A stretch of DNA of 64,000 nt from an uncultured Verrucomicrobiaceae bacterium (GCA_964500675.1 CAZCNY010000004.1:140361-204360), one strand, 5' to 3'; shown: positions 42,330 through 47,660, counted from the stretch's first letter. Notes: generated by a model from the letters alone, not told the origin. Numbers and translations are program-made.

Positions 42330-42345
42330 CGCAAGCGCGATGCCA
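42330..42345 (-). promoter_or_regulatory. sigma54 (-24/-12) promoter upstream of the hemolysin-family operon
   Basis: The minus strand reads TGGCAT-CGCGC-TTGCG (TGGCAT = 42345-42340, TTGC = 42334-42331). The GG/GC spacing is exact relative to the TGGCAC-N5-TTGCW consensus. The -12 element lies about 38 nt upstream of the ATG at 42293. Confidence 0.7.
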
Positions 42346-42429
42346 AATTCGGCTGATCAGCGCATTGCGTTGTTTTTTCGAGATTTTTAAAACGGATGCG
42401 AAATTATTGCACGGTGTCGCGAGCGTGAT

Positions 42430-42444
42430 ACTGCAAGAGTTGTC
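42430..42444. promoter_or_regulatory. candidate enhancer/UAS element ACTGCAAGAGTTGTC (copy 1)
   Basis: 14/15 identical to 47533-47547. It lies about 85 bp upstream of the -24 element at 42345. Confidence 0.5.
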
Positions 42445-42469
42445 GACCGATATTGCAGCGTTGCGCAGA

Positions 42470-42943
42470 TTATTTCGGGCAATGTGGAACCTCGCCGATC
42501 ATGAGCACAACATCGATATCGTGATCGGGAACACATTTCGAGACGTAGCCGATGGCGCCCGGTACCGAGCGCACGAATAAAATCACCGCCGTTTCGGAGG
42601 CGACCACGTGCGGCGGCAGCACGCCGTGGAAGTACATGTCGCTCCAATAATTTTCGAATTGCTCGGGCGTGCCGCCGAGAATCGCCTGTGAAAATACGTC
42701 GCGCAGCGGATGATCGGCGGGCAAATTGACCGGGTGAATGCGCGCGCCGTCGCTCCAATAATCGCGCTTGTGCAGAAATATTTGCGCGATATCGCTTTGC
42801 GCCAGCGGGCCATGCGCCGAACCCGAAGCCGTGATGACGGCGAAGGCGCGCGCTTCGGCGCGGCACAGCGATGCGCCGCAAAATAACAGCAGCAGGCATA
42901 ACAGCGCGCGCGGTTGAAAACGCATCGACGTCGGCGTGCGCAT
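42470..42943 (-). CDS. small periplasmic substrate-binding-like protein (PBP type-2 / PstS-like fold)
   Basis: 157 aa with a signal peptide (ALLCLLLLFCGASLCRA). The ...IAQIFL.KR..W.DG..I.PVN......R..F.......P..F..YW pattern matches short PBP-like proteins. Its start is 3 nt after the porin-like gene stop. Confidence 0.55.
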   Translation of the reverse strand: MRTPTSMRFQPRALLCLLLLFCGASLCRAEARAFAVITASGSAHGPLAQSDIAQIFLHKRDYWSDGARIHPVNLPADHPLRDVFSQAILGGTPEQFENYWSDMYFHGVLPPHVVASETAVILFVRSVPGAIGYVSKCVPDHDIDVVLMIGEVPHCPK

Positions 42944-42945
42944 GC

Positions 42946-44004
42946 TTAAAACATCACGCTAAAGGAGGATAGAAAACCCTCCTGCGCGCCGATGATGTTG
43001 TGTTTGCCGCCGATCCATTCGGCTTTGACGACGAGCGCGCGCGAGATGCGAAAGTTGAGGCCGGTTACCCACAATTGTGTTGCGGCGTCTTCCTGTGCTT
43101 GCCGAAAACTTTCGAAGCGGCCGACCGCATACAGACGCTGCGTGAGCGGCAGCGCCAGCTGTAAATAACCGCCGCGCTCGTCCCAGGGTTTACCGTTTTC
43201 GGAGAAGCGATAAATGCCTTCGCCGCTGAGTTCGCTGCGGCGATAGGTCCAGACGAAATCGGCGCCGATGAGATTCTTCTTCTCCTCGCTCGCATTTTTC
43301 TGCTCGAAATTCGCGTACGAAAAACCGATGGTGAGGTCAGGCGAAAGCGGCAGGCTCAGACGTGTGCCGATCGCTTCATAGAACGGATCCTGATCGGGAT
43401 TGGCGCGCCATTCGTGGCCGTTCGAGCCGTAAATCGTGTATTGCGCACCGCTCGTTCCGGGCATATTGCCGCGCAGCATGACGCCCGTGACATTGGCGGG
43501 ATACGCTGCGCTGGTCAGTTGCGGACGCGATGTGGTCCACACCAGCGGCGCCGCATGAATTTCATTCCAGCGGCCGATCGGTGTGAGGAATTTACCGATG
43601 CGCAAGGTATTCGTGTCGGTGACCGCGTAATCGACGTACAAACGTTCGAGCGCGAGATAGCGATCTTCATCCTCGCGTTGCGCCGGGCGCGACGCCACCA
43701 CATTTTCGTAATCGAGTTCGGAGAAAAATTTCCAGCGCTGTTCGCTGTCCCACCAGAGAAACGCGCTGAGATGATCGAGATCGGCGCGCGCCGGTTCGGC
43801 GCGCAAGTTATCGTAACTGGCCGAGGCGTAGCCGCCGAGCATCCAATTGGAGTCGAATAAGCGCAGGCCTTCGCCCAAATGGTACGCGTCAGCCGCAGCG
43901 GCGTCGGCATTGGCGCCGGCGGCGGCCACCAGCATCGCAATAGTGGCGAATCGCCTGAGCTGGATGAGGGTTTGTGCAGCGGTACGGGATCGATGCTTGG
44001 GCAT
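42946..44004 (-). CDS. putative outer-membrane beta-barrel (porin-like) protein
   Basis: 352 aa with a signal peptide (IAMLVAAAGANADA), alternating beta-strand amphipathic pattern, Tyr/Gly/Asn-rich composition and a C-terminal aromatic residue (…SFSVMF). Confidence 0.6.
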   Translation of the reverse strand: MPKHRSRTAAQTLIQLRRFATIAMLVAAAGANADAAAADAYHLGEGLRLFDSNWMLGGYASASYDNLRAEPARADLDHLSAFLWWDSEQRWKFFSELDYENVVASRPAQREDEDRYLALERLYVDYAVTDTNTLRIGKFLTPIGRWNEIHAAPLVWTTSRPQLTSAAYPANVTGVMLRGNMPGTSGAQYTIYGSNGHEWRANPDQDPFYEAIGTRLSLPLSPDLTIGFSYANFEQKNASEEKKNLIGADFVWTYRRSELSGEGIYRFSENGKPWDERGGYLQLALPLTQRLYAVGRFESFRQAQEDAATQLWVTGLNFRISRALVVKAEWIGGKHNIIGAQEGFLSSFSVMF

Positions 44005-46085: not shown

Positions 46086-46127
46086 CGGTTGCGCGATCGG
46101 GATAAGTGTTAGGTCACCGAGGTCATT

Positions 46128-47525
46128 ATGAAAGGTAAGCAGATACTGGTTGTCGACGACGAACCGAAAATGCGCCGCGTGCTGGAAATCATGCTGGAGA
46201 AAATCGGTTACAGCGTGTTGAGCGCGAGCAACGGCGTTGAGGCGCAGGAAATTTTCGCCGCCAACGCCGTCGATTTGATCATCACCGATTTGCGCATGCC
46301 CGAGATGGACGGCATCGAATTGCTCGGCACTGTGCGCGCAAAAAATTCGGAAGTGCCCGTCATCGTGATCACGGCGCACGGCACGATCGAAACCGCCATC
46401 ACCGCGATGAAACACGGCGCCAGCGATTATCTGTTGCGGCCGTTCGATATCGACGTGCTCGAACTCGCGATCGAGCGCGCGCTGAGCGGCGCTGAAATTG
46501 CGCGCGAGAACGCGTATTTGCGCCAGGAACTCAATCGCGGCTGGGATGCTTTCGTCGGCTCCGGCAAACCGATGCAAACGGTTTATGAATTGATCAAGCG
46601 CGTCGCCGCGAGCAAAGCATCGGTCTTGATCACGGGCGAAACGGGCACCGGCAAGGAATTGGCGGCGCGCGCGATTCACAATGCGTCGTCGCGCCGCGAT
46701 AAATTATTCGTGCCGATTAACTGCGCGGCGATTCCCGCCGATATTCTCGAAAGCGAATTATTCGGCCACGAAAAGGGTGCGTTCACGGGCGCCGCACGCG
46801 AGCGCATCGGCAAGTTCGAGCTGGCCGAAGGCGGGACAATTTTTCTCGACGAACTCACCGAAATGCCGTTGGCGCTGCAATCGAAATTGTTGCGCGTGTT
46901 GCAGGAAAATACCATCGAGCGTCTCGGCAGCAATCGCACCATCAATCTCGATATCCGCGTTATCGCCGCCACCAATCGCAACCCGTTGCAGGCGATCAGC
47001 GCGGGCACGTTGCGTGAAGATTTGTATTATCGCGTCAACGTATTTTCCATCGAGCTGCCGCCATTGCGCGCGCGCGCGGAAGATATTCCAGGGCTGGTCG
47101 AACACTTCATCGCGAAACACGAAGGCTCGTCGGCGCGCACGCAATTGACGACGGGCGCGCTCGAATTGTTGCAGGCGTATGCCTGGCCCGGCAATGTGCG
47201 CGAACTCGAAAATACGATCGAACGCGCGCTGATTTTAAGCGGCGGCGGCCTGCTCGATGAGCAGTATTTTCCGCTCGACCTCAACGCTGCGCCTAAAATA
47301 GTTAGCGCTGCGAAAGCGGCGGACACTTCTGCTGTCGCCGCGTGTAACGCATCGGGATTGCCGCCGCTTAATCAGGCGGTGGAAGAACTGGAGGCCCGTC
47401 TCATTGAGCAGGCGCTGACACAAGCCGACGGCAATAAAGCCAAAGCGGCGGCGCTGCTCGATATCAGCGAGCGCACGCTGTGGTACAAGCTAAAAAAATA
47501 TCAGCCGCACATTGCGGGTAAATAA
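46128..47525 (+). CDS. sigma54-dependent response regulator (NtrC family: receiver + AAA+ + Fis-type HTH)
   Basis: 465 aa with a receiver (ILVVDDEP...DLIITDLRMPEMDG), an AAA+ module with GETGTGKE, GAFTGA, ESELFGHEKGAFTGA and RVIAATN, and a C-terminal HTH (GNKAKAAALLDISERTLWYKLKK). Confidence 0.92.
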   Translation: MKGKQILVVDDEPKMRRVLEIMLEKIGYSVLSASNGVEAQEIFAANAVDLIITDLRMPEMDGIELLGTVRAKNSEVPVIVITAHGTIETAITAMKHGASDYLLRPFDIDVLELAIERALSGAEIARENAYLRQELNRGWDAFVGSGKPMQTVYELIKRVAASKASVLITGETGTGKELAARAIHNASSRRDKLFVPINCAAIPADILESELFGHEKGAFTGAARERIGKFELAEGGTIFLDELTEMPLALQSKLLRVLQENTIERLGSNRTINLDIRVIAATNRNPLQAISAGTLREDLYYRVNVFSIELPPLRARAEDIPGLVEHFIAKHEGSSARTQLTTGALELLQAYAWPGNVRELENTIERALILSGGGLLDEQYFPLDLNAAPKIVSAAKAADTSAVAACNASGLPPLNQAVEELEARLIEQALTQADGNKAKAAALLDISERTLWYKLKKYQPHIAGK

Positions 47526-47532
47526 ATCGTTC

Positions 47533-47547
47533 ACTGCAAGAATTGTC
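47533..47547. promoter_or_regulatory. candidate enhancer/UAS element ACTGCAAGAATTGTC (copy 2)
   Basis: 14/15 identical to 42430-42444. It lies about 98 bp upstream of the -24 element at 47645. Confidence 0.5.
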
Positions 47548-47644
47548 TGCAAATGTTGTTAACAGTCTTTGCGGTAATTGCACAATCTGCTTTGCTGAAT
47601 ATTAAAAGTCACCGGGAAACAGCGGTTTATAAAATGTCCACTGC

Positions 47645-47660
47645 TGGTATTCCTTTTGCT
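47645..47660 (+). promoter_or_regulatory. sigma54 (-24/-12) promoter upstream of the 68-aa ORF
   Basis: TGGTAT-TCCTT-TTGCT has exact GG/GC spacing. It lies 37 nt upstream of the ATG at 47697, with AGAGAGG as the RBS at 47683-47689. Confidence 0.7.

Follow-up and report, generated by a model that had tools for sequence, protein, structure and literature searches.

Sigma-54 promoters with palindromic activator sites upstream, lying beside the genes of two-component regulators, are a textbook arrangement. In rhizobia, for example, DctB senses C4-dicarboxylates, and its partner DctD is the sigma-54 activator that serves dctA. As for the genes that such a circuit might control here, the nearest described relative is the dth region of Vibrio, in which the delta-thermostable hemolysin is paired with an acyl-CoA ligase, DthC (PMC12208996). 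We analyzed a 64,000-nucleotide stretch of DNA from an uncultured Verrucomicrobiaceae bacterium (GCA_964500675.1 CAZCNY010000004.1:140361-204360), hereafter called the window, in which a sensor kinase gene and a sigma-54 activator gene lie between two predicted sigma-54 promoters, P1 and P2. P1 precedes a five-gene operon whose first gene encodes a protein of the 'thermostable hemolysin' family (PF12261), and P2 precedes an open reading frame (ORF) of 68 amino acids (aa). Our main finding is that both promoters carry a palindromic upstream element which, at the operon promoter of related loci, goes together with the activator gene. Judging from sequence comparison, the best explanation, to which we give a probability of about 0.8, is a two-component enhancer circuit of the DctB/DctD style acting at P1 and P2. 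A search of the literature found no description of this regulon, of its binding site or of the function of the PF12261 cassette.

The genomic comparison started from an alignment of the PF12261 protein, which led to 80 loci from species-representative genomes; 81 loci were compared, with synteny established by tblastn. A preliminary description of the region had placed the kinase and activator genes between two sigma-54 promoters, and the sequence confirms both the arrangement and the positions given for the -24 and -12 elements. P1 lies on the minus strand (42345-42330, TGGCAT-CGCGC-TTGCG) and is followed, 37 nt downstream, by the ATG of the PF12261 gene at 42293. P2 lies on the plus strand (47645-47660, TGGTAT-TCCTT-TTGCT), also 37 nt ahead of an ATG, that of the 68-aa ORF at 47697, which is preceded by an AGAGGA ribosome-binding site. 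Both have the GG at -24 and the GC at -12, 10 bp apart, within a sequence resembling TGGCAC-N5-TTGCW, as expected of the sigma-54 class, and we predict that both are functional sigma-54-dependent promoters. The window contains TGGYAY-N5-TTGC three times, where 0.59 occurrences would be expected, and 2 of 100 shuffles gave three or more. The third occurrence (37887-37901, minus strand, TGGCATAGCGCTTGC) is identical to P1 at 14 of 15 positions; it falls just downstream of the last operon gene, within the 3'-terminal part of a convergent NB-ARC ORF, and is able to fold into a small hairpin. With no palindrome nearby, and no counterpart in the related loci L002 or L004, it was treated as a chance match rather than as a real promoter.

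Upstream of each promoter, the preliminary description had noted a common 15-mer. The two 15-mers are where it placed them (ACTGCAAGAGTTGTC at 42430-42444 and ACTGCAAGAATTGTC at 47533-47547) and, allowing 0-1 mismatch, they occur at these two places only in the window; because both are on the plus strand, they face their promoters in opposite orientations. A conserved site is indeed present at both promoters, but its unit is a 28-bp palindrome, CTGCAA-N5-GTNNAC-N5-TTGCAG, with its outer hexamers two helical turns apart, and not the 15-mer, which is no palindrome by itself and represents one half of the longer one. This is its position in site 1 (42431-42458, CTGCAA GAGTT GTCGAC CGATA TTGCAG). 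Site 2 (47534-47574) is made of three half-sites, CTGCAA at 47534, CTGCAA at 47547 and TTGCGG at 47569. The canonical palindrome (47547-47574, CTGCAA ATGTT GTTAAC AGTCT TTGCGG) consists of the last two, while the 15-mer covers the first, accessory half-site, 13 bp upstream of the canonical copy. Site 2 is real, although its anatomy is other than that first described.

We built a weight matrix from 34 distinct palindromes of other genomes, the window's own sequence being excluded. It scores 37.0 at 42431-42458, 19.6 at 47547-47574 and 13.6 at the overlapping position 47534-47561, and 1.2 or less elsewhere in the 64 kb. A shuffled window is expected to contain 0.003 hits scoring at least 19.6 and 0.013 scoring at least 13.6, and the maximum score in 549 kb of control loci without the activator was 7.0. 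In a MAFFT alignment, the canonical site-2 palindrome aligns with palindromes found after the activator gene in L040, L018 and L029, and the CTGCAA-N7-CTGCAA layout of site 2 recurs in L039 and L040. The close relatives L002 and L004, with PF12261 proteins 69-78% identical to that of the window, give another view of site 1: the intergenic region is conserved at two places only, which are the promoter (TTGGCATC-N-GCTTGCGATA) and the palindrome, CTGCAA-N5-GTCGAC-N5-TTGCAG.

The evidence that ties this element to the adjacent activator comes from its distribution. The five-gene cassette was found in essentially all loci compared. About 45 of them also have a block composed of porin, secreted-protein, kinase and activator genes, in the order and orientation of the window; the taxa concerned include Thiobacillus, Rhodocyclaceae, Propionivibrio, Zoogloea, Niveibacterium, Uliginosibacterium and Panacagrimonas. 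The block is missing from 33 loci, belonging to Zetaproteobacteria, Halopseudomonas, Pseudomonas, Sedimenticolaceae and others. Palindrome and promoter are present in 44 of the roughly 48 loci that have the block or end within it, with a matrix hit of at least 16 upstream of TGGCAY-N5-TTGCR before the PF12261 gene. In four loci whose activators have diverged (L030, L037, L039 and L045), CTGCAA/TTGCAG half-sites are still clustered there; where activator identity is down to 54-69%, the site has changed as well. Matrix and motif scans of the 33 activator-less loci, which carry the same cassette, revealed neither palindrome nor promoter. P1 keeps its position across 44 genomes, with protein identities as low as about 45%, while the flanking intergenic sequence is not conserved, and in L038 the palindrome is found with a sigma-54 promoter of its own after the gene of the secreted protein, despite 4 kb inserted before the operon. 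This co-occurrence of site, promoter and activator is our main reason for regarding the adjacent activator as the user of the site, and as the protein that putatively binds the palindrome.

Further information comes from the spacing, measured from the palindrome centre to the GG of the -24 element. It falls mainly in classes of about 100, 113, 124 and 136 bp, of which that at about 124 bp holds the majority, with a few loci in between (108.5, 109.5 and 130.5 bp). The class at about 100 bp includes L002 and L004 (101.5 bp), the second sites of Thiobacillus (98.5-101.5 bp) and site 1 of the window (100.5 bp). Classes about 11 bp apart point to a face-of-helix constraint, such as would be expected if the DNA looped to bring the activator on its enhancer to the sigma-54 holoenzyme. 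The activator had been anticipated to bind some 80-150 bp upstream, and the observed centres, at 100.5 bp for P1 and at 85.5 and 98.5 bp for P2, fall within this range.

The activator (46128-47525, plus strand) has the composition expected of the NtrC family, with Pfam matches to Response_reg (2.5e-32), Sigma54_activat (1.7e-71) and HTH_8 (1.2e-16) as well as an AAA lid, and its translation contains the GAFTGA motif, a Walker A motif (GETGTGKE) and the receiver aspartate. It is, as previously claimed, the only sigma-54 activator in the window: three other receiver-domain proteins are encoded there, and all other tblastn matches are confined to receiver domains. Since it reaches the cut-off of no named NCBIfam equivalog (at best 471 bits against 714 for AtoC, then 440 against 559 for NtrC and 426 against 800 for LuxO), we do not consider it an orthologue of any named regulator, be it AtoC, NtrC, LuxO, ZraR or PrsR.

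The kinase (44271-46085, plus strand; Pfam HisKA and HATPase_c) also reaches no NCBIfam equivalog cut-off. Its own match to dCache_1 is weak (19.9 bits for a Pfam cut-off of 45) and its sensor has no significant sequence match in the PDB, but PF02743 is present in 24 of 40 kinase orthologues. Moreover, an AlphaFold2 model of residues 1-330 (mean predicted local distance difference test, pLDDT, 88) finds as its top Foldseek matches the DctB sensor domain and the ligand-binding domains of dCache chemoreceptors (E 3e-10). The Cache-like periplasmic domain proposed earlier is thereby upheld, as a double-Cache domain, by orthologue matches and structure model together. At the 5' end of the kinase ORF, 3.7 tandem copies of an 18-bp repeat (44269-44334) give the protein an N-terminus in which a SIRKTV-like peptide is repeated. 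Only one copy is present in L002 (MTIRKTLLI...), so that the kinase may start further downstream, or its N-terminus may have expanded here.

In the circuit that we propose, the kinase would detect a small molecule in the periplasm through its double-Cache domain and phosphorylate the activator. The latter would bind CTGCAA-N5-GTNNAC-N5-TTGCAG, assemble on the DNA some 85-100 bp ahead of either promoter, and drive, at the expense of ATP, the opening of the complexes formed by the sigma-54 holoenzyme. P1 would then direct transcription of the five-gene operon, encoding an acyltransferase, an acyl ligase, a heme-oxygenase-like enzyme, a reductase and a TPR protein, and P2 that of the gene for the 68-aa protein, as a monocistronic unit. 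In our view, the likeliest role of the co-conserved porin and secreted protein would be to return to the kinase what the operon makes, or a compound akin to it, as a positive feedback. What the kinase senses, and whether this is the operon product, are matters of inference from gene content and order.

A second site and promoter after the activator gene is a recurrent but variable feature of the loci examined. In seven Thiobacillus loci (L017, L018, L020-22, L029 and L032), a palindrome just after the activator stop codon is followed, about 100 bp further, by TGGCAT-N5-TTGC, and an eighth (L013) has the same arrangement with a weaker -24 element. In Thiobacillus, this analogue of P2 precedes not a small ORF but a gene for an outer-membrane beta-barrel of about 207 aa with a signal peptide. 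In L040, a Burkholderiaceae metagenome-assembled genome, the post-activator palindrome is followed by a 62-aa homologue of the small ORF; a further site and promoter are present at the end of the contig.

The 68-aa ORF itself (47697-47903, plus strand) belongs to an unnamed family of small proteins. A word-indexed homologue search returned only the ORF itself, and Pfam gave no match for the family even at E = 5, but a full HMMER search of 1.8 billion representatives found 21 homologues, 20 of which are 62-73 aa long, most of them aligned over nearly the full length. As these similar-sized homologues have motifs in common, E-x-(R/G)-E-V-G-P-D-x-D-G-D-A-D-D and V-N-x-x-G-Q-x-x-G-x-x-I-N-T-K-A, we take the ORF to be a real protein-coding gene. 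Distant homologues in three metagenome loci, L085 (3500-4266), L089 (23-769) and L092 (549-1720) adjoin response-regulator or kinase genes of other types, including a stand-alone receiver and an OmpR-type regulator, and the DGDxDD family may thus be associated with two-component systems in general.

The operon behind P1 was previously called a hemolysin-family operon. The operon stands, but hemolysin is a misnomer for its first protein (41655-42293, minus strand; PF12261, E 6.7e-54). A secreted pore-forming hemolysin was considered and rejected: the translation has no signal peptide, and the protein is predicted to be a cytoplasmic GNAT-like acyltransferase. Indeed, its AlphaFold2 model (pLDDT 87; predicted template-modelling score, pTM, 0.82) has FeeM and the synthases MesI, BjaI, TofI and LasI as its best Foldseek matches, with TM-scores of 0.50-0.57 and a probability of 1.0; the CoA-dependent RpaI is also among the acyl-homoserine-lactone synthases matched. 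Sequence identity to these structures is 10-16%, and there is no match to the PDB at the sequence level. According to the model, the protein has the fold of N-acyl amino acid synthases and acyl-homoserine-lactone synthases. This fold, and the translational coupling of its gene to that of the acyl ligase, argue for a biosynthetic role in acyl transfer and not for a toxin. No biochemical data on PF12261 proteins were found in the literature. With 212 aa, the window protein is without some 30-40 N-terminal residues present in almost all homologues (about 242 aa), and the conservation of the MK- start and of an upstream GTGTG motif points to an in-frame deletion near the N-terminus.

The other four genes of the cassette follow on the minus strand: the AMP-forming acyl ligase (40099-41658; AMP-binding, E 2.6e-52), the heme-oxygenase-like iron redox enzyme Haem_oxygenas_2 (39459-40139; PF14518, E 1.2e-24), which matches the TENA/THI-4 protein of PDB entry 3dde, of heme-oxygenase-like fold, at E 2e-13, the syntenic short-chain dehydrogenase/reductase (38650-39453; adh_short, E 2.9e-51) and, last, the TPR-repeat protein (37965-38630; TPR_19), which is syntenic in nearly all related loci. 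The best NCBIfam scores of the TPR protein, all far below the cut-offs, are to the outer-membrane or envelope lipoproteins BstC, PilW and LapB. Taken together, these enzymes would make an N-acylated small molecule or lipid. In Halopseudomonas (L070, 14175-16204), the cassette is followed by genes for an OmpR-type regulator and a 2CSK_N kinase; as this system is unrelated to that of the window, the cassette has been wired to two-component signalling more than once, independently. In Zetaproteobacteria (L052, 13488-14186), an OMP_b-brl gene lies inside the cassette and encodes a barrel of a kind resembling the second target of Thiobacillus.

Several observations weigh against the proposed circuit, mostly at its second promoter. 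The canonical palindrome of site 2 is centred 85.5 bp from the GG of the -24 element, some 15 bp or about 1.5 helical turns less than in the class at about 100 bp, and only the weaker overlapping site at 47534-47561, at 98.5 bp, is in phase at P2. The small-ORF homologue of L040 has no canonical sigma-54 promoter, the nearest motif having a wrong -24/-12 spacing, and homologues in nine metagenome contigs have neither palindrome nor sigma-54 promoter, from which it follows that the small ORF is not generally a target of the activator; the control of this ORF claimed in the preliminary description is thus supported in the window only. No rpoN gene was identified within the 64 kb. Finally, both palindromes lie 10-25 bp after a stop codon, that of the secreted-protein gene and that of the activator gene, which makes a role at the 3' end of transcripts geometrically possible. 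The palindromes would then be terminators or RNA-stabilising hairpins of the porin/157-aa and kinase/activator operons, and the near-perfect palindrome of Thiobacillus does fold well as RNA (z = -4.6). However, the palindromes of the window fold weakly (z = -1.1 and -1.9), neither there nor in L018 is there a U-tract behind them, and the hexamers CTGCAA and TTGCAG are near-invariant in sequence instead of co-varying, with inner positions that are non-complementary in the clade of the window. Nor would such hairpins account for distances to a sigma-54 promoter mainly in classes 11 bp apart, for the absence of the element wherever the activator is absent, or for L038, where element and promoter stay behind the 157-aa gene with the operon displaced by 4 kb; we therefore regard this explanation as very improbable. 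That the palindrome is an enhancer for some protein encoded elsewhere, the adjacent activator controlling other genes, is quite improbable too. NtrC-family activators can act on distant genes, and the three other receiver-domain proteins of the window might be invoked, but the presence of the site matches that of the activator (in all 33 loci without it and, apart from a few diverged ones, in the loci that have it), the two diverge together, and a sigma-54 promoter requires an AAA+ activator, of which this is the only one in the window. Most improbable of all is that the -24/-12 matches arose by chance and that the genes are transcribed by sigma-70 or by read-through. This would fit the apparently meaningless third match at 37887-37901 and the lack of a terminator between the 157-aa gene and the operon. 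A weak sigma-70-like match (TTAACA-16-CACAAT, 9/12; 47559-47586, plus strand), which overlaps the centre of the site-2 palindrome and could allow some basal transcription of the small ORF or be due to chance, might also be counted in its favor. Chance, however, would hardly keep a promoter in place across 44 genomes whose flanking sequences are not kept, and sigma-70-like sites are rarer in the region than expected (3 against 6.1).

The enhancer circuit can be accepted without deciding what the operon is for, and here two readings have to be compared. The locus could be an envelope-remodelling regulon, whose kinase senses an external cue, much as DctB does with dicarboxylates, and whose operon makes an aminolipid or surfactant, exported by way of the TPR protein and the barrels; we consider this possible, at somewhat less than an even chance. 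The fold of FeeM-type N-acyl amino acid synthases is also the fold class of aminolipid N-acyltransferases, which counts in its favor, as do the envelope lipoproteins that come closest to the TPR protein, the outer-membrane barrel that is the second target in Thiobacillus and the barrel gene in the cassette of Zetaproteobacteria. Against it, CoA-dependent acyl-homoserine-lactone synthases are among the closest folds and the gene of an acyl ligase is adjacent, the cassette is tied to two unrelated two-component systems, as would be expected of a signal and its receptor, and porin and secreted protein are conserved beside the sensor. A bolder reading is that the nine genes form an unrecognised cell-cell signalling system of Thiobacillus, Rhodocyclaceae, Zoogloea and relatives, which as a whole we hold to be tentative and rather unlikely. 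If it were true, the PF12261 enzyme, ligase, oxidase and reductase would make a new acylated autoinducer, which would enter by a dedicated porin and be detected by the double-Cache kinase, possibly with the 157-aa protein as co-receptor. The activator would close a positive feedback through the CTGCAA-N16-TTGCAG enhancer, and a second copy of the enhancer would add an output that varies with the lineage, the DGDxDD protein or the barrel.

The remaining genes of the locus lie between and beyond these elements. On the minus strand, the order is porin, 157-aa gene, a 176-bp intergenic region with site 1 and P1, and then the five cassette genes; on the plus strand, kinase and activator are followed by a 171-bp region with site 2 and P2, the 68-aa ORF, and a G+C-rich hairpin (47925-47955, from RNA folding and sequence), which is probably a terminator common to the small ORF and a convergent DUF4440 gene. 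The kinase gene diverges from that of the outer-membrane porin-like protein (42946-44004, minus strand; BBP2/OmpL-like, PF07642, 31.1 bits for a cut-off of 26.2). The next gene encodes the 157-aa secreted protein (42470-42943, minus strand), for which the label of binding protein used earlier finds no support: a signal peptide is present in the translation, but Pfam, NCBIfam and the PDB yield no match. Both genes do form part of the locus, as had been proposed: in about 45 genomes they are found in synteny with the kinase and activator genes. In the divergent region between the porin and kinase genes, neither a palindrome site nor a sigma-54 promoter was found. What it does contain is an unrelated tandem repeat (44092-44167) with a unit of 20 bp (about CCGGTAACTGTATTTGAAAA) in 3.8 copies. 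These copies, absent from the corresponding region of L002, could be sites for another regulator of the porin and kinase operons.

Beyond the TPR gene, an NB-ARC/TPR STAND NTPase of 871 aa (35348-37963, plus strand) separates the cassette from a UvrD/Rep-like helicase (33102-35198). This gene looks like an insertion, since the TPR gene directly abuts the helicase gene in L004; a PADLOC search gave no match for it, and the helicase matches only generic UvrD/GajB models. On the other side, the genes of a phage-type integrase (50390-51313) and of a protein of the Zot family (51830-52948), both within 50390-52948 on the minus strand, suggest that an element like a filamentous phage has integrated some 2.5 kb outside the locus. 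An Rfam scan of 37000-49500 gave nothing credible.

This study provides a testable cis-regulatory code for an uncharacterised NtrC-family regulator, consisting of a 28-bp palindrome, a phased spacing and two promoters, and kept in no fewer than 44 genomes, those of environmentally important Betaproteobacteria (sulfur oxidisers and members of activated sludge) as well as of some Gammaproteobacteria. It also indicates that PF12261 is better seen as a biosynthetic acyltransferase, in a five-gene cassette that has been joined to two-component systems more than once. Should the operon product be what the kinase binds, the locus would represent a new quorum-sensing-like family, combining a LuxI-fold synthase, a membrane kinase and a sigma-54 output; if it is not, the locus would still offer a clean model of an enhancer and an activator that change together, with a variable second target.

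Among known systems, the closest is that of DctB/DctD and dctA, which likewise associates a double-PDC/dCache kinase with an NtrC-family activator whose sites are about 100 bp from the sigma-54 promoter of a neighboring gene, and whose sensor domain, that of DctB, is the best structural match of the window kinase. The targets differ, as they are here a biosynthetic operon and a small ORF instead of a transporter, and so do the site, CTGCAA-N16-TTGCAG, and the co-conservation of a porin and a secreted protein. NtrB/NtrC at glnAp2, AtoS/AtoC and ZraS/ZraR have the same architecture of receiver, AAA+ and HTH_8 domains, and the NtrC family in general uses palindromic enhancers, with multiple adjacent sites for oligomer assembly and a dependence on helical phase; the half-site sequence and 16-bp spacer of the window are different, and its activator scores below the family cut-offs. 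A third parallel is the control of qrr genes by LuxO in Vibrio, in which an NtrC-type regulator in a signal-sensing pathway acts at the sigma-54 promoter of a very small adjacent gene. The LuxO site, TTGCA-N3-TGCAA, has TGCAA half-sites resembling those of the window, but their orientation and spacing differ. Moreover, the small gene of the window encodes a conserved protein and not a small RNA (no Rfam match), and the kinase is paired directly with the activator, no LuxU-type phosphorelay protein being encoded in the locus.

On the biosynthetic side, synthases of the LuxI type (BjaI, RpaI, MesI) and FeeM are the best fold matches of the PF12261 protein, to which the adjacent ligase could supply an acyl-CoA donor. 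Identity is low, as given above, no LuxR-type receptor is encoded in the locus, and the additional heme-oxygenase-like oxidase and reductase imply that the product differs from those of LuxI and FeeM. Going by its published description, the dth region of Vibrio likewise combines a PF12261 protein with an AMP-forming ligase, and no sigma-54 or two-component link is described for it (PMC12208996). Thus, whereas the mechanism that we propose is an ordinary one, the locus that it would control is uncharacterised and, possibly, signal-producing.

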